Origin: a virus
Lineage: Duplodnaviria; Heunggongvirae; Uroviricota; Caudoviricetes
Length of the DNA: 64,000 bases
Reading direction: 5' to 3' (one strand)
Virus record (IMG/VR): IMGVR_UViG_3300047550_004303
Made by a program: the position numbers and the translations under genes
In this document: positions 2,079-51,308 of the stretch, piece after piece
How the letters are laid out: each line of letters opens with the position of its first letter
Position numbering within the stretch: position 1 is the first letter of the stretch
Notes under the pieces: model-generated
The model's database searches: none
Told to the model about the DNA's origin: nothing
The model's input: the letters and a program-made list of their open reading frames with translations, nothing else

Positions 2079-3266
2079 TTACCAAGCTTTAAGGATAATC
2101 ATGTTTTCGTTAGTACGTCCATTCGGTGTAGTTGCTACAGCACGAATATCACTGAAGTACTTACGTCCTGCAGGCTTACCCAACTTCAGAATTTGTGCAA
2201 TCTGTTCAGCCGGCTTACGCAGTGTTTTGGTCTGACTCTTGATATTGTCGAACCCAAGCAACGTAGTGCCCTTCACTGAGAAGGTCTTGCTGTACTCATC
2301 GGCAACCATGTAAATCAATTTACGCTTGGCTGTATCGTAGAGATAGCATTCACTGGCTCCATGAAGTTTGACAGGGTGCAAACTTACCAAATCCAGTTTT
2401 GTTGCAGTGTCCTTGAATTCCTTCAAAAACTTCATCTTAGCAACCTGCTTCTCGATAGGAACTGCCTTACGCTTACGCGGTGCCTTTGATGCCTTCTTGA
2501 CGCTAATGTAGCTATTCAAATCACCCAAAACTTGATCAATAAACTTGGAAATGTTTTTGAGTTGGGTACGAGTAAAATGATTATAACCCTGAACCAATTG
2601 TGCATCGGTTCCCTTCAGAACTTCTTCAAACTCAGTTTGCTTTTTCTTCCAAACATCACTGATAATGGAAATGTGTTGAGGAAGAACATTAAATTTTGCT
2701 ACGGTGTCAATCGGGCGCAGAGTATGCGTTGCCTTTGCACCAGAAAGAATATAGTCGTCCAGAACACCTTCAAGTTCTCCAGCAGCCTCACGGGCACGTT
2801 CACGCATAACTTCTTGCACGTTATGCTTGGGAGCTTCTTTGACTTCGGGCTTTGTGCCCCCCGTCTTAGAAACTTTTGCTTCTTTCTTGACGGGTGTGAT
2901 CAATGCATCAATTTCTTTTTCAATCATGTCCGATTCTTCTTTTGACAGAACCAGACCGCGCAGGCTCATGCGAGCAAGCCACGCTGTAGTGATAGTAATA
3001 TCACGTTCATCAACCTTGCGAAACAACTTTGCCTTGTCAATTTTGTCAGTAAGGTCAAGATATTGGCAAATCAGTTCTTTAGCGTCTTTACGCCCGTAGA
3101 ACCTTCCATACCAATTGAAGCCTTTGACCAGGCTAATCTTTCGCGTGGCTTCGTTAGGCTGAACAGTAAACAGTGGTTCTTCACCCATGTACTTGGTATC
3201 AGGATCTCTGGGATCAAGAGCCTTGACAACTGAGGTATCGACTTGTTTTGCTGCTTTACGAGGCAT
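2079..3266 (-). CDS. hypothetical protein
   Basis: 395-aa ORF, Lys-rich, no recognisable motif. Confidence 0.55.
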   Translation of the reverse strand: MPRKAAKQVDTSVVKALDPRDPDTKYMGEEPLFTVQPNEATRKISLVKGFNWYGRFYGRKDAKELICQYLDLTDKIDKAKLFRKVDERDITITTAWLARMSLRGLVLSKEESDMIEKEIDALITPVKKEAKVSKTGGTKPEVKEAPKHNVQEVMRERAREAAGELEGVLDDYILSGAKATHTLRPIDTVAKFNVLPQHISIISDVWKKKQTEFEEVLKGTDAQLVQGYNHFTRTQLKNISKFIDQVLGDLNSYISVKKASKAPRKRKAVPIEKQVAKMKFLKEFKDTATKLDLVSLHPVKLHGASECYLYDTAKRKLIYMVADEYSKTFSVKGTTLLGFDNIKSQTKTLRKPAEQIAQILKLGKPAGRKYFSDIRAVATTPNGRTNENMIILKAW

Positions 3267-18855: not shown

Positions 18856-19512
18856 ATGACTATTTATTCAAGAAAAAACCCTCCCACAGGGTTTTATGTG
18901 TATGCATATTTAAGACAAGATAACACCCCATACTATATTGGAAAGGGATACAATATCCGAGCATGGAATACTCACGATAAGGGTATAAAACCACCCAAAA
19001 ACAAAACAAGAATTATCATACTTGAATCTAACCTTAGCGAGATAGGGGCATTTGCAATAGAAAGAAGAATGATTAAATGGTATGGACGGAAAGATTTAAA
19101 TACTGGAATACTAAGAAATAAAACTGACGGCGGAGAAGGAGCTACAGGTTATAGATTTTCAAAAGAGGCATCTACAAAACGAGGAAGAATGCGCAGGGGA
19201 ATTAAAAATCCCAAAACCAGTTTGGCTTTGAGGGGAAGAACATTTTCAGAAGAACATAAATTAAACATCAGTACTAGTAAAAAAGGTAAAAAATTTTCAG
19301 AAGAACATTGTATTGCTTTGTCTAATGCACATAAAGGAAAACCTTCTCCAAATAAAGGAAAAAAGCAATCGTTAGAAATTATACAAGCAAAAAGCAAAAT
19401 GTTAAAAGGCGTACCAAAAAAAGAATATGTTTGCCCCCACTGTCACAAAATCGGAAACGGACCTGTTATGATGCGGTTTCATTTTCAAAAATGTAAAACG
19501 TTGAAAACTTAA
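18856..19512 (+). CDS. GIY-YIG homing endonuclease (Seg-like)
   Basis: GFYVYAY...YYIGKG... GIY-YIG core. The C-terminus has NUMOD3-like FSEEHK..S..KGK repeats and a zinc-finger-like CPHC. Confidence 0.85.
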
Positions 19513-36034: not shown

Positions 36035-37081
36035 TCAACCATCGTTCTTAATGAGCCACCGGTTGGAAATTGCCTTGAAACTAGGACCACCAAACGTATT
36101 GCACTTGAACACCAGCCCTTCACGATTGGTCTTAGAATTCAGTGCGCTAACACCATCAGCCATAGTCAACAGTCCAGTAACCCATTCTTCAATCACCATT
36201 TCAGTAGCAAGCACAGGAACATGCTTGATACCGTGAGTGTCAGCAAACACACGACGCTCAAGGGGACCAAGGTATTCTCCGCGATCAATATCGTAGATAT
36301 CAAACAAGCGGAAATCTTGACCCTTAACGTTGTAGGCATTACCTTGAATACCTTCACCGATCAATTCACCTTGCAGGGCAAGATTGCGACCAGTTTGACG
36401 AACCTTTTCAATCAACTGTTCACGACGAGCCACAGCCCACAGGGTATTGCCAGCAGTTTCCTTGAGTGCCCAATTACGGCTGCAAACACCTTCACGATCA
36501 CCATGAACGAAAACAGTCATAGAACTGCCATCGAGCTTTTCAGTAACCTCCCAAGTAAAGGCACTGTTGCCTTGCCAAGTTTTGAGTTCTTCAGTGAGAT
36601 TCTGGATACGCTCTTGATCAGTCTTGGGGATCACAGAAGGAAAATTTCCTTCAACATCACCAGCCAGTTGAGCAGGAATAGGAGCCTCCCACTTTTGAAT
36701 GCCAAGCCGCTCACTAATATCAACATTCACCTGACTCCACCAGAAACGGCGGTCAGATCCAGGAAATGCCGTTTCAATAGGCAGCAACAGCCCTTGACTG
36801 ACCTGGCCACGCAGCTTTACAGTGCGAAGACGTTCACCCTTGACACCATTAAACTCACGGGGTTCTTGACCCTTACTGAGAAATGGGGCAACAGCATGAG
36901 GAACCCAAGAATCAATTTCCAGGTAGACGGCAAGGTCACCTGCCTTGAATTCACCCTTCTTGATGACAACTACCCAGCCGCCAACCACAGCGGCTTCAAT
37001 AGCATCCGCACCTTCAATCGGACGAATTTCATCAATCTTGCGGATCGTAGTCATTTTACGTTCGGACATTTTAAACTCCAT
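36035..37081 (-). CDS. ATP-dependent RNA ligase (N-terminal OB domain plus nucleotidyltransferase, Rnl5/DraRnl-like)
   Basis: Motif I KLDGSS (KxDG lysine nucleotidyltransferase). The N-terminal IRPIEGADAIEAAVVGGWVVV is an OB-type fold. 348 aa. Confidence 0.65.
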   Translation of the reverse strand: MEFKMSERKMTTIRKIDEIRPIEGADAIEAAVVGGWVVVIKKGEFKAGDLAVYLEIDSWVPHAVAPFLSKGQEPREFNGVKGERLRTVKLRGQVSQGLLLPIETAFPGSDRRFWWSQVNVDISERLGIQKWEAPIPAQLAGDVEGNFPSVIPKTDQERIQNLTEELKTWQGNSAFTWEVTEKLDGSSMTVFVHGDREGVCSRNWALKETAGNTLWAVARREQLIEKVRQTGRNLALQGELIGEGIQGNAYNVKGQDFRLFDIYDIDRGEYLGPLERRVFADTHGIKHVPVLATEMVIEEWVTGLLTMADGVSALNSKTNREGLVFKCNTFGGPSFKAISNRWLIKNDG

Positions 37082-37098
37082 TAAATTTCAATTTTAGA

Positions 37099-37127
37099 AA
37101 TGTATTTAATTACTGATTTATTGTCAA
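37099..37127 (-). promoter_or_regulatory. sigma70-type promoter upstream of RNA ligase
   Basis: TTGACAATAAATCA, 17 nt, TACATT. Confidence 0.4.
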
Positions 37128-37837
37128 GCAACCCGGGGACGATTGACAACAGTTTGCTTCAGGCCCTGATATTCGCCGTGCTCCTTGACGGTAGCCACAA
37201 ACTCAACAGCAGAACCCTTTTCATATTCGCTGCCGAACGAACCAAAATACACGACGGTAGAACCATCCACATCCACGTGGGTGATGTAACCAACACCGCT
37301 ATCGTAGTAATGAAACTTGGGACGATCAAAGGTCTTGACAAACTTAACCACACCCTTGAAGGTCATACGCTTGCCCACTTCGCCGATATGCTGGCTAGTG
37401 TTAGCTTCGGCGACAACAACAGGACGCTCCAGCGGAGTAATTTCACCCTGACGGCTCCAAAGCAATTCAGTCTTGCCGGGATCAGGACTAGTGCCGCTAC
37501 GCATATCGCCCACGTAGCCCAGCTTGTATTGAGCAACCACACCCTCACGGTCAACCACAAACTTCCAGGTCACCGGACGGACACTCCTAGTACCATAACC
37601 AGCCCAACGAACGTAGGCATTGACGGCGACCATGACCTGACCTTCAGTCAGATCCACATTGAACAGGTTCTTAGCGGAAGCGGTGTCCCACAGATTTTCA
37701 CGGCTGAAAACCTTGAACAGAAAATCCGCCTGCTTGATGCTCTTGAACTGACCGTTGTTGAACTTGACCAGACCGCTGAGAGTCTTGAACGTGTCAGCGT
37801 CTTGTTGGCTAGCGAATTGAAAAGTCATTTCAGACAC
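37124..37837 (-). CDS. hypothetical protein
   Basis: 237-aa ORF with a GGAG RBS. Confidence 0.5.
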   Translation of the reverse strand: MSEMTFQFASQQDADTFKTLSGLVKFNNGQFKSIKQADFLFKVFSRENLWDTASAKNLFNVDLTEGQVMVAVNAYVRWAGYGTRSVRPVTWKFVVDREGVVAQYKLGYVGDMRSGTSPDPGKTELLWSRQGEITPLERPVVVAEANTSQHIGEVGKRMTFKGVVKFVKTFDRPKFHYYDSGVGYITHVDVDGSTVVYFGSFGSEYEKGSAVEFVATVKEHGEYQGLKQTVVNRPRVA

Positions 37838-37858
37838 TCCGTTTGCTTACTGTTTTCA

Positions 37859-37887
37859 CAGTATAACAATTTTGGGAATATTTGTCA
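37859..37887 (-). promoter_or_regulatory. sigma70-type promoter
   Basis: TTGACAAATATTCC, 17 nt, TATACT. Confidence 0.5.
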
Positions 37888-37906
37888 AACTTTTTTACAA
37901 AAAAAT

Positions 37907-38098
37907 TTAAGGATTTACATTTACCGGACCAACAAATTCAGCCTTAGGTAGGTATTTGGACACTGCTGGATCATTGTCATGACGGTTGAAATCTACAGAA
38001 AACTTCAAAGCTTCAATTCTACTGTCAAAAAAATGTTCGCGGATAACGGTACGATTGGTTGTAGGATTTTGAATAATTTGAACCTTAAACTTACGCAT
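37907..38098 (-). CDS. hypothetical small protein
   Basis: 63-aa ORF. A degenerate cassette and TGATAAATAC lie upstream. Confidence 0.35.
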   Translation of the reverse strand: MRKFKVQIIQNPTTNRTVIREHFFDSRIEALKFSVDFNRHDNDPAVSKYLPKAEFVGPVNVNP

Positions 38099-38155: not shown

Positions 38156-39187
38156 TCAAGGGCGAACGCAAGTAGCCCGTGCAAGACTCTTCCAGTTGGA
38201 AGCACTAATCTTCACCAGATCAGCCAGCTTGAGGCACATACGCAGGCTCATCTCACGAATCTTACTACGATTTTCCCACATGAAATCAAGAATTTCAACC
38301 TCTTGTTCCTTAGAGAAATCGTAATCAACGAACAGACCCGGATCAGCATCACGATAGACCTGACGGATGCGGAGCATCTTATCACGATCGGTGTTGATAG
38401 TCAGATCCAGGAAGTGACTGCGAGATTGCAGAGCCTCCATGTGCGGCTGAATCTTACTAGCCCGCTTGTTATCAAAGCTATTGTTGGTGATGAAGATGAT
38501 AGAACCGTTGAAATTGAAAGTGTTAGGAACACCTTCCTCACGCAGAAGACGAGAGTCCTTGTTATAAGAAATACGACGGGTCTTGCCCGAATCCAATGCA
38601 CCCTTCAGAATGTTGATAGCATCCTGATCTTCCCAGATATCGCAATCGTCAAAAACCAGGACATTCTTGGAATCACTATACTTATACAGCAGTGCGAACA
38701 GACCAATCGCAGACATAGTGCCCTTGACAATCTCGAAACGGGGCTTCTTACCAGCCAGCTTATCAAAAAGGCTAGCCTTTTGCAGTTGGGTATGAACACC
38801 ATGCGACTTACCGACACCGGGAGGGCCAGTGACGATCATTGCACGGATATCACCCGCAATGCAAGCACCGCTCATTTCATCAAGGATGCCAAAACGCTCC
38901 TTGATACGATCCATAGCCTGCTCATCAGTCTCAGACACAACTTCGGCAACAGCCTGAGCAACAGGGTGAACCGAAACCTGCTCGGGCATACCGTTGACAT
39001 ATTCAATGTCAGTGATAGCCTCAACCTTGACCTTGACAGACTCAATGTCAATATTGAATTGACCATCATTCTTGACGGTCACGTAGTTGCCAAGCTTGCC
39101 AGTCTGAAAGCCCTTGACGAGGGTAAAGACTTGATTCTTGACGGGTTGGTTGCGATAAGAACCATTGAGAATGCGAATAGTAGACAT
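38156..39187 (-). CDS. AAA+ family ATPase
   Basis: Walker A GPPGVGKSH and Walker B VLVFDDCD. Start at MSTIRIL with the cassette GGAG 8 nt upstream. Confidence 0.6.
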   Translation of the reverse strand: MSTIRILNGSYRNQPVKNQVFTLVKGFQTGKLGNYVTVKNDGQFNIDIESVKVKVEAITDIEYVNGMPEQVSVHPVAQAVAEVVSETDEQAMDRIKERFGILDEMSGACIAGDIRAMIVTGPPGVGKSHGVHTQLQKASLFDKLAGKKPRFEIVKGTMSAIGLFALLYKYSDSKNVLVFDDCDIWEDQDAINILKGALDSGKTRRISYNKDSRLLREEGVPNTFNFNGSIIFITNNSFDNKRASKIQPHMEALQSRSHFLDLTINTDRDKMLRIRQVYRDADPGLFVDYDFSKEQEVEILDFMWENRSKIREMSLRMCLKLADLVKISASNWKSLARATCVRP

Positions 39188-39219
39188 GTGTGCTCCGTGT
39201 TTCAACTGTCTAGAAAGAC

Positions 39220-39248
39220 ATTATATTAGATTGAGGATTTATTGTCAA
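39220..39248 (-). promoter_or_regulatory. sigma70-type early promoter (cassette copy 4)
   Basis: TTGACAATAAATCCTCAATCTAATATAAT with the conserved leader. Confidence 0.6.
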
Positions 39249-43291: not shown

Positions 43292-43304
43292 TGGATATGG
43301 TAAA

Positions 43305-43328
43305 CCGCACATTTTTGTGCGGTTTTTT
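43305..43328. terminator. intrinsic terminator
   Basis: CCGCACA, TTTT loop, TGTGCGG, then TTTTTT on the plus strand. Lies directly after the stop of the 959-aa gene. Confidence 0.5.
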
Positions 43329-43334
43329 ATGAGT

Positions 43335-46214
43335 TTATTTACCCATTAATTTTTTGAGTGCATCAAGGTCTTCTTGCCCTTCCGCCACACCTTTTTTTAC
43401 AGGTCTTGCCCAATTTAGTGATAGGCTTTGAGTCCTAAATGTTTTCTTGGCCTGTTCTTTTGCTTTAGAGATAGCTTCCTCTTTAGAAGATGCCTTTACT
43501 TTAACACTGTCTGATTGATGTGGACCATGTTCAAAACTTACTTCCCATTCTTGTTCCATGCCTTCCGCCATACCTTGCCCCAAATGTTGTTTCATCGCTT
43601 CCAGTGCTTTTTCTTTGCTCTCAAAGCCTTCTTTAGTTTTGGCTGACGTATTGATAAAGAATCCCCAACTACCTGATTTAGTTTGAAATAATTCACCAAC
43701 ATCTTTGCCATTACGTCTTACCGGTGTTGAATGTGATATAGATCCTGGACCGGCTGAGGGGTTAGGATCATCGGTGCCTTCCGCCACACCTTCTCTTCTT
43801 TCATTCCATTCACTGGCATATAATTTTGAAGTAGGATCTTCGTTAGAATAATTATAAACAATATATGTTCCATAATCATTTTTAGGAACATTAGTTTCAA
43901 GACCTTCACTGTTCATCCATTCTTCAAAAGCCTCGGCACGGTCTTTTGAAATATATACTAGGTCTTGCTCAGAGCCTTCCGCCACACCTTCCTCTTTCTT
44001 TCGACCAAAATAATCGTGACCGGGGTCAGGTTTCTTTAACCCAGAACCGCCACAATCAGGGCATTTAACTCTTATTGCACCTTTTTTATTATCTTTAGTT
44101 AATTTTCCATCTAAACTGTACATAAACTTATGACCACTACACTTAATACAATTCCAGTTAGTGTGTGGTAAAGTTGCTCCCGGCATATAATCACTAGCAC
44201 TTAGACTACCAGGCAAGCCTTCCGCCACACCTCGCTGACCTGACCAAGGTATTGCCTTAAATCTATTTCTAGTCCATAATGCTATATCTTTAGCGTCACG
44301 CTCTAAATTAAATATTTCGGCTTCTTCTGGATTTCTAGTAGAAAGATTTCTACCAAACTTATCCATGCCTTTATAATAATTTCCACGGTAATCAACAAGA
44401 ACATATTTCATACCTTCTACTATTTTAGTCACAATAAAGTGAGGATATTTTTTTGCAAATTTTTCTTTTGCTTTTTGTTCATTGGATGCAAGTATTCCTA
44501 CATCTCCAGTACCAGCGTCAAATCCCTTACCTGTTTTATAGTAAATAACAAACAGTGTTTTATTAGTCGAGCCTTCCGCCACACCTTGCTCTACACTTTC
44601 ATTGGCACCAACTAGTTTACCTCTGGCACCACTATTTTTCTTAACCTTTTCAGTTGGTCCAAGTTGACCAACACGTTTTTGTTCTGGTCCCAAACCTTCT
44701 TCATCTAACTTATCATATTTGGCGCGAATCTTTGCCATCTTTTCTTTGCTCGCACCTTCACGACCTGCTTTGCGTAATGAATCCATGCCGTCTTTGCCGT
44801 ATTTCTTGTTTCCTAAATACGCCTGCAGTCCACTTTCTTCAACTTCTTCTTCAGATAAACTAGAATTTCTGCCAGCATTGACTTTTCTAGCCGCAGCAAT
44901 TAATTTTTGAACTTCTTCATCACTCATCATTCTTGCCATTGATGGTTTACCATGTTGAGCGGTTGTAGGAACTCCCATATCTCTCTGTAGTTTTAGTAAT
45001 AATTGTTTATCATTTGGGGCCAGCTTGTCTAATACAGCCTTCCCCACACTTTTTAATGTGTCAGCAAACCAACCTTCATTTACACTGTCTTCTTCTAAAT
45101 CAAATGACTTTAAATTAGACTTTGCTGTAGATTGGTTATGTGCTAATGTTTCTGCACCTGGTGCTTCAAGTAAACCATTAGCCCATTCTTCTAGTTCTTT
45201 AACTTCTTTTACTTCACTTAAATTTTTACTCAATTTAGAAAGAATAGGCATTACACTTTCAATTCTTGGATCTAATGTCTCTTGAACAAACAATTCATTG
45301 ATGGAAGTTTCATCACCATCAGTCTCCATTAATGTAGGAGTCCAACTTTCAAAATAACTATTGTATCCACGATTACCACGCATCTTACCTAATGTTTCTC
45401 TTAATGAAACATAATGGTTCAATCCTGCTTCTACTAACTTCTGTGCTGATTCATTGAATTGATTTCCACGAACTGCACGAACAAACCCTGCCATTTTGCT
45501 ATATTCTTCACATAATGATTTGATGTGATTCCAACGTTCATCATTAACACTACCGCCTTCTGCTAAATGTCTAGCATATACTTGTGCAATGCCAGGCTTT
45601 ACAGTGGGTGCTAAAAATCTTTCACCTTGGGTATTCTCTAAATAAATTCTTGCAACATTACGATAACGTTGTTCACCTTCTTGGATTTGCCTTGAATGTT
45701 GTAAAATTATTTTTACAGTAGGAATGTTATCATTATAACTACTGTTTTTCCCCATAGCATAATAGCCTTCACTTATGTTTGGCATGGTTGTTCCTTTGTT
45801 CATCAATTTCTTTTTACTTTCAGCAACTTCTTGCTTCTTAACATAATCTCTTTGTGCCATATCACTGTGTAAATGATCTTTGTTTTCTAAATCAAAACCC
45901 ATTTGTCTACGTTGTGCCCACATTTTTAGATACTTTAAAAAGTTGGTCCAACTCATATTTACATCATCTACTCCACCTACTTCTTCGCTAACAACCTCAT
46001 CATCATAATAAACTGTTAATGTGTTGTTTCCGTCAATAGTTGCATATGCTGTACCTTTAACTTGATTGTCATGTTTAAAGGTGAATTTAAATACATCTGC
46101 ATCATCGGGCACTGGACTAGTTTCTCCAGTAGCATCTTTTGGAATAGGATCGAATCCTCTAGTTTTTAGCAAACTATACAGTTCTTTGTTTAGTGATTCA
46201 TTGTTTTTTGGCAT
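43335..46214 (-). CDS. large protein with six C-terminal GVAEG-delimited modules; putative internal-head polyprotein
   Basis: 959 aa. Sites QGVAEG, RGVAEG, EGVAEG, EGVAEG, QGMAEG and KGVAEG lie in the last 410 aa, and one module carries a CxxC...CPDC zinc ribbon. TGATAAATA lies 21 nt upstream. Confidence 0.55.
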   Translation of the reverse strand: MPKNNESLNKELYSLLKTRGFDPIPKDATGETSPVPDDADVFKFTFKHDNQVKGTAYATIDGNNTLTVYYDDEVVSEEVGGVDDVNMSWTNFLKYLKMWAQRRQMGFDLENKDHLHSDMAQRDYVKKQEVAESKKKLMNKGTTMPNISEGYYAMGKNSSYNDNIPTVKIILQHSRQIQEGEQRYRNVARIYLENTQGERFLAPTVKPGIAQVYARHLAEGGSVNDERWNHIKSLCEEYSKMAGFVRAVRGNQFNESAQKLVEAGLNHYVSLRETLGKMRGNRGYNSYFESWTPTLMETDGDETSINELFVQETLDPRIESVMPILSKLSKNLSEVKEVKELEEWANGLLEAPGAETLAHNQSTAKSNLKSFDLEEDSVNEGWFADTLKSVGKAVLDKLAPNDKQLLLKLQRDMGVPTTAQHGKPSMARMMSDEEVQKLIAAARKVNAGRNSSLSEEEVEESGLQAYLGNKKYGKDGMDSLRKAGREGASKEKMAKIRAKYDKLDEEGLGPEQKRVGQLGPTEKVKKNSGARGKLVGANESVEQGVAEGSTNKTLFVIYYKTGKGFDAGTGDVGILASNEQKAKEKFAKKYPHFIVTKIVEGMKYVLVDYRGNYYKGMDKFGRNLSTRNPEEAEIFNLERDAKDIALWTRNRFKAIPWSGQRGVAEGLPGSLSASDYMPGATLPHTNWNCIKCSGHKFMYSLDGKLTKDNKKGAIRVKCPDCGGSGLKKPDPGHDYFGRKKEEGVAEGSEQDLVYISKDRAEAFEEWMNSEGLETNVPKNDYGTYIVYNYSNEDPTSKLYASEWNERREGVAEGTDDPNPSAGPGSISHSTPVRRNGKDVGELFQTKSGSWGFFINTSAKTKEGFESKEKALEAMKQHLGQGMAEGMEQEWEVSFEHGPHQSDSVKVKASSKEEAISKAKEQAKKTFRTQSLSLNWARPVKKGVAEGQEDLDALKKLMGK
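43377..44585 (-). repeat. six dispersed copies of the 15-nt motif gccttccgccacacc (coding G-V-A-E-G)
   Basis: Exact motif at 43377, 43786, 43974, 44217 and 44571. One variant (gccttccgccatacc) at 43561. Confidence 0.75.
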
Positions 46215-46235: not shown

Positions 46236-46244
46236 TATTTATCA
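46236..46244 (-). promoter_or_regulatory. late-promoter-like motif TGATAAATA
   Basis: 21 nt upstream of the 959-aa ORF. Overlaps the terL stop. Confidence 0.4.
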
Positions 46245-50936: not shown

Positions 50937-51308
50937 TTATTTTTTCTTGTAGCCCTTAAATGGCTTAACAACACTTTGTGTATTAGTTGATTTTAACTCT
51001 TGGCTCCGCATGTCACCGTGATTATGATCTTTATGTGGAATACCCACTGCTTTATATGCCAATTTGAGCATATCAGATTCTACCTCTGAATATGGATGTG
51101 CTGTATTATATTTTGCATTCCAACTTTCACCATCCATATCTGGCATTGTAGTTCCATCTGTTGATGCTACTGCCATCATTACTCGGTTTAAATCATATCC
51201 ACGATCATAATTTGTATCGCTAAAAGTATGAATGCCTCTGGTTGCCATACGTTGTCTGTTGGAAAGTTTTCCCTTTTTTTCTTCAAATACAAATTCATCG
51301 GCTCTCAT
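50937..51308 (-). CDS. internal-protein-like small protein (CTS-like N-terminus)
   Basis: N-terminus MRADEFVFEE resembles the T4 capsid-targeting sequence MKTYQEFIAE. C-terminus KPFKGYKKK. Confidence 0.4.
   Translation of the reverse strand: MRADEFVFEEKKGKLSNRQRMATRGIHTFSDTNYDRGYDLNRVMMAVASTDGTTMPDMDGESWNAKYNTAHPYSEVESDMLKLAYKAVGIPHKDHNHGDMRSQELKSTNTQSVVKPFKGYKKK

Follow-up and report, generated by a model that had tools for sequence, protein, structure and literature searches.

In phage T4, the prohead protease gp21 cuts after Glu in I/LxE motifs (bioRxiv 10.64898/2026.03.04.709575; PMC5694885); the head proteins processed in this way (IPI-III, Alt, gp22, gp67, gp68, and the gp23 propeptide) include small internal proteins that are carried in the capsid and injected (PMC5694885). 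T4 cargo is encoded by separate genes, with an N-terminal targeting peptide of 10-20 residues, and the T4 sites are loose three-residue motifs without conservation at the nucleotide level. In the giant phages phiKZ, 201phi2-1, and SPN3US, which belong to another phage lineage, many head-packed proteins (ejection or inner-body proteins) are cut at (S/A/G)-x-E, often at several sites (PMC5694885; PMC10052503). There, processing takes off propeptides and does not release a series of unrelated modules, and neither a conserved junction string nor cassette exchange has been described for these phages.

Polyvalent proteins combine many unrelated domains in one polypeptide, are often encoded near virion genes, and have been proposed to be delivered together with the DNA and then processed into units (Iyer et al. 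2017; PMC5512222). Their domains are recognizable as enzymatic, they usually contain their own zincin-like peptidase, and no uniform inter-domain junction, whether in peptide or in DNA, has been described. Shuffling at short conserved motifs is known from the gp38 adhesins of T-even phages, in which, in the account of PMC3157838 (citing Tetart et al. 1998), variable segments are delimited by glycine-rich motifs and exchanged by recombination; there, a single domain has the motifs as its structural core and the variable segments as its loops. Integron cassette arrays likewise consist of unrelated small units bounded by a recombination site, with rapid turnover and a large shared pool, but depend on an integrase and a structured attC site, and their cassettes are separate genes. 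Eukaryotic RNA viruses encode polyproteins in which a repeated, strongly conserved cleavage motif separates the units of one precursor.

The locus described here lies in a 64,000-nt stretch of Caudoviricetes DNA (the window) and encodes one protein in which a carrier is followed by five cassettes, separated by hydrophobic-x-Glu motifs of the kind cut after Glu in T4. The phage clade has a T4-type portal, S77 protease, scaffold, and Gp23-family major capsid protein (MCP), and small capsid-carried proteins like those of T4 are proposed for it from sequence, but they would be released from a multi-cassette precursor. Unlike the domains of polyvalent proteins, the cassettes are tiny (median 68 aa) and mostly without family match; unlike the loops of gp38, they appear to be whole independent domains with unrelated folds, and one junction string, doubling as a likely cleavage site, is common to many genes. 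In contrast to attC, the site is 15-18 nt long, unstructured, and placed inside the reading frame in constant phase, and none of the window genes scanned carries an integrase annotation. Unlike the RNA virus polyproteins, the array belongs to a DNA phage, holds variable accessory modules rather than a core replication or capsid set, and has a junction conserved at the nucleotide level. A full-text literature search found no phage paper for the motif, nor a description under related themes.

Table 1. The array gene and its flanking signals; positions refer to the 64,000-nt window and residue numbers to the 959-aa product.
Feature	Position	Strand	Description
Whole gene	43335..46214	(-)	959 aa; carrier domain at the N-terminus, then five cassettes in an array and a conserved tail at the C-terminus
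Carrier part	44586..46214	(-)	aa 1-543
Junction 1	44571..44585	(-)	GGTGTGGCGGAAGGC = GVAEG, aa 544-548; homology to L121, L123, and L124 stops here
Cassette 1	44232..44570	(-)	113 aa, aa 549-661; without family match
Junction 2	44217..44231	(-)	exact 15-mer, aa 662-666
Cassette 2	43989..44216	(-)	76 aa, aa 667-742; CxxCxGxx...CxxCxGxG, zinc-ribbon-like
Junction 3	43974..43988	(-)	exact 15-mer, aa 743-747
Cassette 3	43791..43973	(-)	61 aa, aa 748-808
Junction 4	43776..43790	(-)	exact 15-mer, aa 809-813
Cassette 4	43575..43775	(-)	67 aa, aa 814-880
Junction 5	43560..43574	(-)	GGTATGGCGGAAGGC = GMAEG, aa 881-885; homology to L123 restarts here
Cassette 5	43392..43559	(-)	56 aa, aa 886-941; predicted beta-beta-alpha-beta domain
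Junction 6	43377..43391	(-)	GGTGTGGCGGAAGGG = GVAEG, aa 942-946; homology to L121 and L124 restarts here
C-terminal tail	43338..43376	(-)	QEDLDALKKLMGK, conserved; predicted helix
Terminator-like hairpin	43302..43322	(-)	CCGCAC-AAAAAT-GTGCGG then TTT, directly after the stop codon; read from sequence
Late-promoter-like motif	46236..46243	(-)	GATAAATA, 7/8 positions of the T4 late consensus TATAAATA; read from sequence

A sequence-only reading of this DNA had described a 959-aa protein with six GVAEG-type sites, and the ORF translation and motif positions bear this out (Table 1). The module sizes it gave (about 110, 85, 65, 72, and 58 aa and a 14-aa tail) are corrected here to 113, 76, 61, 67, and 56 aa and a 13-aa tail. 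The late-like motif that it placed 21 nt upstream is present at that distance before the start codon (ATG) and overlaps the stop codon of terL. Its description of the surroundings as a late region is only half right: the gene does come after terL, but the genes that follow it encode a gp32-like single-strand DNA-binding protein and UvsX. Nearly every family member has the tail, with x-x-E-G invariably in front of it.

The carrier region is conserved in >1,700 metagenomic proteins, and a decayed junction lies within it at about aa 505-511; its residues 86-328 are homologous to gp278 of Pseudomonas phage PA5oct. This distant homolog is flagged as an ESI-MS/MS virion protein in its record, and has neither junctions nor tail. 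Among cultured phages, the PA5oct-like group is closest (terL 50% identical), with the conserved gene order terL - gp279 - gp278 - gp277 - UvsX; megablast of 10 kb against GenBank phages returned nothing. These homologies suggest that the carrier is virion-associated. A PHROGs search gave one weak match, to "virion structural protein," and no Pfam family matched the window protein at E <= 0.01. The MuF (PF04233) N-terminal domain of MuF-anchored polymorphic toxins and SPP1 gp7-like head proteins was not matched by Pfam, nor, at E <= 0.01, was the polyvalent set (zincin-like MPTase, ArdC-N, methylases, helicases, and LPD domains). The carrier fold had no significant PDB match (best E = 0.2) and only uncharacterized relatives in BFVD; one BFVD structural neighbor is annotated "Large polyvalent protein-associated domain." In contrast to T4 IPI-III and Alt, the window protein has no 10- to 20-aa N-terminal targeting leader ending in a gp21 site: (L/I/V)-x-E is absent from the first 20 residues (MPKNNESLNKELYSLLKTRG...), and the N-terminus lies within a confidently folded conserved domain (AlphaFold, about aa 10-290).

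Exchange at the junctions is seen in three metagenomic relatives (L121, L123, and L124) that are 92%-99% identical to the window in flanking DNA; all comparison data are metagenomic contigs. In each, homology is lost at junction 1. It returns at junction 6 in L121, which has different cassettes in between, at junction 5 in L123, which lacks cassettes 1-4, and at junction 6 in L124, which has no cassette at all. The breakpoints lie no more than a few bases from junctions 1, 5, and 6, so that, as in gp38, exchange breaks at conserved motifs. The comparison of homologs that the sequence-only reading had called for finds differences exactly at the sites, with the cassettes replaced, partly deleted, or all absent; gain, loss, and swapping of cassettes at junctions is the recombination pattern that these alignments show.

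The nucleotide-level behavior of the junction is the best-documented and most unusual part of the finding. On the + strand the string GCCTTCCGCCACACC has six matches at <=2 mismatches, where shuffles give an expectation of 0.01 (six matches were reached in 0/100 shuffles); six-frame translation of the whole 64-kb window contains only two further occurrences of [VILM]AEG. Four sites (44571, 44217, 43974, and 43776) carry the exact string, rather than the five first counted, and two are one base off: site 5 (43560) reads GGTATG... and encodes GMAEG, and site 6 (43377) ends in GGG. At five of the six sites the common string extends to 17 nt (AAGGTGTGGCGGAAGGC). Its codons are rare in this 36.7% GC phage (GTG 9%, GCG 8%, GGC 14%), and the chance of the exact string given the GVAEG peptide is P = 4.5e-4 per site. 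Across arrays, the Gln codon preceding the junction is CAA 114 times and CAG twice.

The same constraint appears in family loci picked without reference to the motif, in which 19 GVAEG sites show only five DNA variants (nine exact, the remainder one or two bases off); the invariant AEGG of the carrier domain, which serves as a control in the same genes, is written in 23 codon combinations across 79 genes. A recoded control encoding the same peptide in preferred codons (GGTGTTGCAGAAGGT) matched 120 loci, with no ORF containing a second junction-like motif, while 103/160 sites of the canonical string are in ORFs with such a second motif, and at least two exact copies occur at 30 loci. By these counts, and from the spectrum of variants given below, the junction is constrained at the DNA level, with its synonymous positions frozen, and its V-A-E core is protected at the peptide level. 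The earlier side remark that the site might have a nucleotide-level role or undergo gene conversion proved apt: the junction behaves as a clade-wide, codon-frozen breakpoint for cassette exchange. Purifying selection at synonymous sites could also stem from a role at the RNA or translation level.

In viral metagenomes the 15-mer is in frame within long ORFs at 140/160 sites. Only about 14 of the 123 ORFs that bear it resemble the window protein, and the motif is present in 32/120 homologs of that protein; many arrays are on other carriers or have no recognizable carrier. The window gene is not peculiar in having the motif, which is a general junction across many multi-module ORFs that are unrelated.

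None of the 30 further ORFs scanned in the window encodes a prohead protease, MCP, or portal, and the scaffold gene is likewise outside the window; a 395-aa ORF at 2079-3266, considered as an MCP, was rejected on examination. The window phage presumably has protease, scaffold, and MCP, as its relatives do. In PA5oct, the genes for portal, head maturation protease (gp331), and major head protein are grouped as a T4-type head module, and a metagenomic relative (L265) encodes Portal_T4, Peptidase_S77 (PF03420, the gp21 family), and a Gp23-family MCP, with the protease adjoining the MCP. The L265 gene content runs from portal to MCP, its final gene is a Peptidase_S74, and it is without the family gene that another relative, L133, carries. 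Protease, scaffold, MCP, and a GVAEG-array gene are on one contig in L015 and L040, and L061 has an MCP gene and an array gene; in these three contigs, which were found only via the 15-mer, the array gene adjoins the MCP gene.

The MCP N-termini and scaffold proteins of the clade contain LLE-G, LAE-S, LAE-A, and IAE-S. All six window sites read V/M-A-E then G, with Val or Met where the canonical gp21 site has Ile or Leu, and the proposed fit of V-A-E/G to gp21 specificity agrees with the I/L-x-E rule (bioRxiv 10.64898/2026.03.04.709575) apart from this P3 residue. The motif, with five invariant residues and a preferred preceding Gln, is far stricter than the three-residue motifs of prohead proteases, and Val at P3 is non-canonical. 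Structure prediction places cassette 5, the one cassette modeled with a proper alignment, as a folded unit (pLDDT about 80-85) in a model of aa 871-959 in which both junctions fall below 50 and the tail is a helix, suggesting that junctions are in disordered linkers between folded parts. Predicting the individual modules, as the sequence-only reading had advised, was informative for cassette 5; most of cassettes 1-4 have low confidence in the full-length model and are uninformative. The prohead-protease reading of the junctions is partly, and indirectly, supported by these motifs and models, by the head genes of the relatives, and by the virion detection of PA5oct gp278.

On balance we regard it as probable that the gene is an in-frame cassette array whose junction is a recombination patch, as the breakpoint pattern shows, and is probably also a prohead-protease site. 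The C-terminal 416 residues would be an array grafted onto a virion-associated carrier encoded beside terL, each cassette being a small, independently folding module. At the DNA level the junction (consensus (C)AA GGT GTG GCG GAA GGC, read (Q)GVAEG) would serve as a universal, frame-preserving identity patch at which recombination may delete, insert, or exchange cassettes, whether inside one array, from one carrier gene to another, or from phage to phage. Copies with the exact string would keep taking part, and such ongoing exchange, or gene conversion, would explain why synonymous positions are frozen on rare codons. For homologous recombination to be efficient, however, a patch of this length (15-18 bp) is short. 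At the protein level, the exposed V-A-E/G would most likely be cut after Glu by the T4 gp21-type prohead protease of the clade; the precursor, brought into the prohead by the carrier domain and/or the conserved C-terminal helix, would be split into several small proteins, which would be carried inside the capsid and could be delivered into the host along with the DNA.

Rare codons frozen at synonymous positions, breakpoints exactly at junctions, and arrays on many unrelated carriers might also arise if the string acted as a DNA signal and nothing else, either recognized or used for crossover by a dedicated enzyme (such as a nuclease, a homing-type endonuclease, or a site-specific recombinase) or acting as a Chi-like hot spot, with the protein staying intact and GVAEG as a harmless translation; homing-endonuclease-like genes are common in these genomes. 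We consider this unlikely, since one-base variants of the junction are enriched for synonymous changes (33/66, against 29% expected), non-synonymous variants retain V-A-E (GVAE[D/A/E/S], DVAEG), which is the best-conserved stretch among variants, and V-x-E-G is still kept before the tail in distant family members that lack the DNA string; moreover, no dedicated recombinase or nuclease was identified, and in the loci read none accompanies the arrays consistently. The junction might also be cut by some protease other than the prohead one, from the host or from the phage, or by the protein itself, either in the cytoplasm or once injected, in which case the products need not be capsid cargo. The strictness of the motif compared with known gp21-type sites, the arrays without a recognizable virion carrier, and the metallopeptidase domains thought to process polyvalent proteins (PMC5512222) all favor such an enzyme. 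We think it quite improbable, given that 0/60 array ORFs have a peptidase domain, that array genes adjoin terL or the MCP gene, and that the gp21 family, which is encoded in the clade, has Glu at P1 together with a hydrophobic P3 as its signature.

The rare-codon cluster (GTG GCG ... GGC) could instead pause ribosomes for co-translational folding, or the identical strings could permit ribosome bypassing and thus isoforms; rare codons do stand consistently at domain boundaries, in linkers between folded domains. Very little probability attaches to this, as any rare codons would serve for pausing, without a fixed string, the DNA breakpoints would be left unexplained, and RNA structure at the six junctions (z -1.1 to +0.3 against shuffled controls) was rejected. 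That nothing special is involved is hardly credible. Gly- and Ala-rich pentapeptides are plausible passive linkers, which recent duplications might copy, and metagenomic contigs might be chimeric at short repeats, but five residues and their rare codons are kept across carriers only about 50% identical, and the cassettes are mutually unrelated. Repeats of 15-18 nt are also shorter than the k-mers of the usual assemblers, which counts against chimeras, and the same arrays recur in independent assemblies: one (P0002) in JGI/NCBI and Logan contigs from different samples, while another (P0121) reproduces the cassette order of the window at 100% identity.

If the junction does have the dual use that we favor, as recombination patch and protease site, giant phages could renew pre-made injected proteins very quickly with reading frame and processing intact. 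We suggest, tentatively, that it may even be a purpose-built coding "splice point," in a large clade of uncultured T4-superfamily giant phages with a shared pool of hundreds of cassettes, where the same string is both recombination point and head-protease tag. Any array could then receive any cassette in frame, since all cassettes would end in one codon-frozen string of 15-18 nt. Were this so, every recombination event would of itself produce a new protein, correctly processed and delivered by the capsid; the system would be an equivalent of the integron at the protein level and a new way of replacing injected effectors quickly. The locus also offers a rare case of synonymous-site selection in a phage structural gene tied to a specific evolutionary behavior, and the junction might offer a nature-derived rule for designs in which T4-type capsids are loaded with foreign proteins.

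As a handle, the single 15-18-mer retrieves hundreds of arrays and about 100 families of uncharacterized small cassettes from metagenomes; 167 doubly flanked cassettes form 104 clusters, 77 of them singletons. In 185,579 bacterial and archaeal genomes, the 18-mer gave only single, probably chance, matches in GC-rich genomes and a few phage-like contigs; the latter are binned into metagenome-assembled genomes of discordant taxa and point to no host. The five window cassettes fall in five different clusters and have no further repeats in common, as expected from the earlier statement that the modules are unrelated, and homologs of all five occur in other arrays, in alignments that start and stop at junctions.

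The cassettes had no significant Pfam or PDB matches, and among 60 array ORFs there were a few matches to GNAT, LysM, deaminase, DUF6321, and GP88. The zinc ribbon noticed in the sequence is present in cassette 2 as a CxxC...CxxC module (aa 690-726), with only sub-threshold similarity to DnaJ-CXXCXGXG and Anti-TRAP; its homologs in other arrays are junction-flanked. In a fold search, cassette 5 best matched YkzG and T7 Gp2, of small beta-beta-alpha-beta fold, at a non-significant E = 0.1-0.2 that offers a lead only. Because cassettes turn over rapidly and have free-standing small-gene versions, we would guess at roles in host takeover or counter-defense, for which the cassette families form a candidate list. 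Cassette 5, the most widespread, also exists as free-standing genes of 54-104 aa, and T4-like cyanophages have a different array cassette as a gene of its own, about 55 aa long.

The 959-aa protein carries six G[VM]AEG sites (aa 544, 662, 743, 809, 881, and 942), here termed junctions 1-6, which divide the part behind the carrier (aa 1-543) into five cassettes and a C-terminal tail. On the plus strand of the window the junction 15-mer, GCCTTCCGCCACACC, has six matches at no more than two mismatches, with 0.01 expected from shuffles. Four copies are exact, not five as counted in the sequence-only reading, because site 5 begins GGTATG (GMAEG) and site 6 closes with GGG; the five modules and short tail of that reading stand, with lengths now measured as 113, 76, 61, 67, and 56 aa and a tail of 13 aa. 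The shared string is 17 nt long at five of the six sites, and the gene has no other meaningful internal repeat. GC content of the window is 36.7%, and within their respective codon families GTG accounts for 9%, GCG for 8%, and GGC for 14%; under this codon usage the probability of GVAEG being spelled with the junction codons is 4.5e-4.

Searching IMG/VR for the exact 15-mer returned at least 120 loci, and among the matches listed 140 of 160 sites encode GVAEG in frame in the longest ORF (at least 150 aa), 103 of the 160 lie in ORFs with two or more junction-like motifs, and 30 loci have more than one exact copy. Of the 123 ORFs with the 15-mer, again among the matches listed, only about 14 resemble the window protein, so the motif joins modules in a wide range of proteins. 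In its extended form the consensus reads [K/E]-Q-GVAEG-[S/L], with the preceding Gln encoded by CAA in 114 cases and by CAG in two. Further GVAEG sites in ORFs retrieved through one exact copy are themselves exact in 37 of 71 cases, the others being one or two bases off. In a motif-unbiased sample of 80 family loci, retrieved with carrier-domain peptides, the 19 GVAEG sites show just five DNA spellings (nine sites exact); by comparison, the AEGG that is invariant in the carrier domain encoded by these genes is spelled in 23 ways across 79 genes, the commonest all using GCT or GCA for Ala. GVAEG in preferred codons (GGTGTTGCAGAAGGT), scanned likewise as a control, also gave at least 120 loci, and among the matches listed no locus had two copies and no ORF a second junction-like motif. 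Matches to the 18-mer among bacteria and archaea were limited to scattered single occurrences in GC-rich genomes, probably due to chance, and to a few phage-like contigs that had been placed in MAGs. The junction is clade-wide, in frame, and codon-frozen.

Constraint is also evident in the peptide. Among in-frame junction copies with a one-base change, 33 of 66 are synonymous against an expectation of 29% (13 synonymous changes among 45 possible), an excess of about 3.8 standard deviations by our own arithmetic. The non-synonymous variants mostly affect the outer glycines (GVAED, GVAEA, GVAEE, DVAEG) and retain V-A-E, which is protected at the peptide level.

At least 1,797 metagenomic proteins (537-1,139 aa, on contigs of up to 370 kb) match the 959-aa protein, and they cover only its first 36-62%; the family thus combines a conserved carrier with a rear that varies. 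Contigs of 200-370 kb with a family member include IMGVR_UViG_3300046787_000200 and 3300028394_002328. In nearly every member the C-terminus is a conserved tail, ...EG-QEDLDAxxxxxxK, and ahead of it stands x-x-E-G, often as V-K-E-G or V-A-E-G. G-x-AEG occurs in 32 of the 120 best matches, at 55 sites, every one in the variable rear. A minimal form (P0003) reads ...ESVEQ-GVAEG-QEDLDALKKLMGK, with the junction directly abutting the tail. The window protein also has a look-alike of a decayed seventh junction, KLDEE-GLGPE; three relatives (P0004, P0028, and P0038) show KLDE[E/Q/K]-GVAEG here and P0001 shows GLAEG, and the segment KYGKDGM..LRKAGR ahead of it is found behind a junction in two other loci (L021 and L040).

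Three close relatives (L121, L123, and L124), 92-99% identical to the window in their flanking DNA, show that cassettes are gained, lost, and replaced, and that the breakpoints fall at the junction. Homology to L121 is lost 2 nt past junction 1 and regained 2 nt ahead of junction 6, with unrelated cassettes between; in L123, which lacks cassettes 1-4, it returns at junction 5, and in L124 the tail is fused to junction 1, leaving no cassettes. Assembly chimeras might produce such differences and are unlikely here, since arrays recur in independent assemblies: one array protein (P0002) is present in both a JGI/NCBI contig and a Logan contig, and a JGI fragment (P0121) has the cassette order of the window at 100% identity.

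The cassette pool is large and consists of small unrelated modules. Among the collected proteins, 167 segments have a junction at each end; they form 104 clusters, 77 of them singletons, with a median length of 68 aa (5-95% range, 48-217 aa). Against 5.8 billion protein clusters, the rear half of the window protein matched only 43 proteins, all multi-module, and the alignment to each cassette starts and stops at junctions. A profile of cassette 5 found about 100 representative clusters, most within arrays; several others stand alone as complete genes of 54-104 aa, one of which sits among four small genes packed closely in a row. Many T4-like cyanophages, including syn9 (gp114) and P-SSM2, have another array cassette, DACYxKVKSRY..., as a gene of its own (about 55 aa); in the cultured phages S-SM2 and S-SCSM2R that cassette lies inside a hypothetical protein with several modules (about 710 aa), encoded between terS and terL, from which the GVAEG junction is absent.

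No Pfam family matched the window cassettes above threshold; cassette 2 has a DnaJ-like CxxCxGxG pattern, and 60 array ORFs gave occasional matches to GNAT, LysM, deaminase, DUF6321, and GP88. An AlphaFold model of aa 871-959, built from a 21-sequence alignment, predicts a disordered stretch with junction 5 (pLDDT below 50), a beta-beta-alpha-beta domain corresponding to cassette 5 (pLDDT around 80-85), a second disordered stretch with junction 6, and a terminal helix. The model places the junctions in predicted linkers. The matches of cassette 5 to its nearest PDB folds, YkzG and T7 Gp2, fall short of significance (E = 0.1-0.2, TM about 0.6-0.7 relative to target), and the predicted likeness is only a lead; YkzG (the epsilon subunit) and T7 Gp2 are both small RNA polymerase-binding proteins. 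The full-length model is confident for the carrier at about aa 10-290. The carrier has no significant structural neighbor in the PDB; its neighbors in BFVD are uncharacterized proteins of uncultured phages, one labeled "Large polyvalent protein-associated domain." Predicted RNA folding at the six junctions was no better than that of shuffled sequence.

The nearest cultured relatives are PA5oct-like Pseudomonas jumbo phages (terL identity, 50%). Residues 86-328 of the window protein are 27% identical to PA5oct gp278, and the gene order is shared: structural protein, terL, gp279, gp278, gp277, then UvsX. The gp278 record flags virion detection by ESI-MS/MS, so a distant homolog of the carrier has been detected in virions. 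The capsid protein is far more conserved than its neighbors in this clade, with the PA5oct major capsid protein (MCP), a Gp23 family member, sharing about 78% identity with thousands of metagenomic proteins (among them P0164-P0283).

An ORF scan of the 64-kb window found no MCP, portal, or prohead protease gene. PA5oct has consecutive genes for portal, head maturation protease, a scaffold-sized protein, and the major head protein, and one contig with a homolog of the PA5oct MCP (L265) encodes Portal_T4, Peptidase_S77, a 374-aa scaffold-like protein, and Gp23. T4 gp21 cleaves after Glu in I/LxE motifs (bioRxiv 10.64898/2026.03.04.709575), and its substrates are the scaffold, the MCP propeptide, Alt, and internal proteins (PMC5694885). 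MCP N-termini in the clade read ...EALLEGLSG...RRYLAESAT, and the L265 scaffold-like protein contains KLAE-A, QLAE-E, and KIAE-S. Three loci retrieved through the 15-mer only (L015, L040, and L061) have a GVAEG-array gene alongside or near a Gp23-type MCP gene. In L015 and L040 the order is protease, scaffold, MCP, then array ORF, with portal and an acidic protein also in L040, so the gp21-family protease and the junction co-occur on one molecule. A GIY-YIG homing endonuclease look-alike gene lies between MCP gene and array in L040.

Taken together, the array precursor may be packaged and cut at its junctions by the prohead protease, and the fragments would then be delivered to the host, where they could act in takeover or counter-defense. 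A protease site does not by itself explain why the motif is so strict and its synonymous sites frozen; for both, a putative role at the DNA level is the simplest explanation. Recombination probably uses the junction as a homology patch, with selective retention of junction-bounded products alone as the less favored reading.

The array resembles several known systems and is a member of none: the processed head cargo of T4 and phiKZ-type phages, Aravind's polyvalent proteins (PMC5512222), the gp38 adhesins with their motif-delimited shuffling (PMC3157838), and, by analogy, integron arrays. A full-text literature search found no phage paper with the junction motif, and thematic searches gave no account of it.

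The gene starts 27 nt past the stop codon of terL (which matches Terminase_6N and PHROG terminase families), with GATAAATA 21 nt upstream of its ATG, in line with the late-like motif and terL adjacency proposed from sequence alone. A terminator-like hairpin directly follows its stop codon; a gp32-like single-strand DNA-binding protein and UvsX are encoded downstream, and a virion structural protein gene lies upstream of terL. Two endonuclease-like genes in the window have PHROG matches, and PA5oct has several Hef-like homing endonuclease genes close to structural genes. Between 36035 and 39229, three successive pairs of long ORFs on opposite strands overlap almost completely, and either strand may be coding. 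Arrays seem to have a second hot spot around a 123-aa gene; in the window this gene has no junction nearby and a methyltransferase-like gene alongside. In the clearest cases, seven loci (L012, L032, L039, L079, L082, L090, and L116), a GVAEG-array ORF adjoins a homolog of this gene or lies within about 1 kb of it.

Coordinates of features in the window and in loci compared with it
Feature	Sequence	Position (nt)	Strand	Remark
959-aa gene	window	43335-46214	-	
Cassette 5	window	43392-43559		aa 886-941
Decayed junction look-alike	window	about 44682-44702		aa ~505-511
Overlapping ORF pair 1	window	36035-37081; 36221-37084	-; +	
Overlapping ORF pair 2	window	37124-37837; 37100-37951	-; +	
Overlapping ORF pair 3	window	38156-39205; 38303-39229	-; +	
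Homing-endonuclease-like gene	window	18856-19512	+	
HNH-endonuclease-like gene	window	56557-57846	-	
123-aa gene	window	50937-51308	-	homolog in 12 of 120 15-mer loci listed
Head genes and array	L040	1855-9937		
S-SM2 multi-module gene	L126	3701-5827		Synechococcus phage
S-SCSM2R multi-module gene	L127	3947-6121
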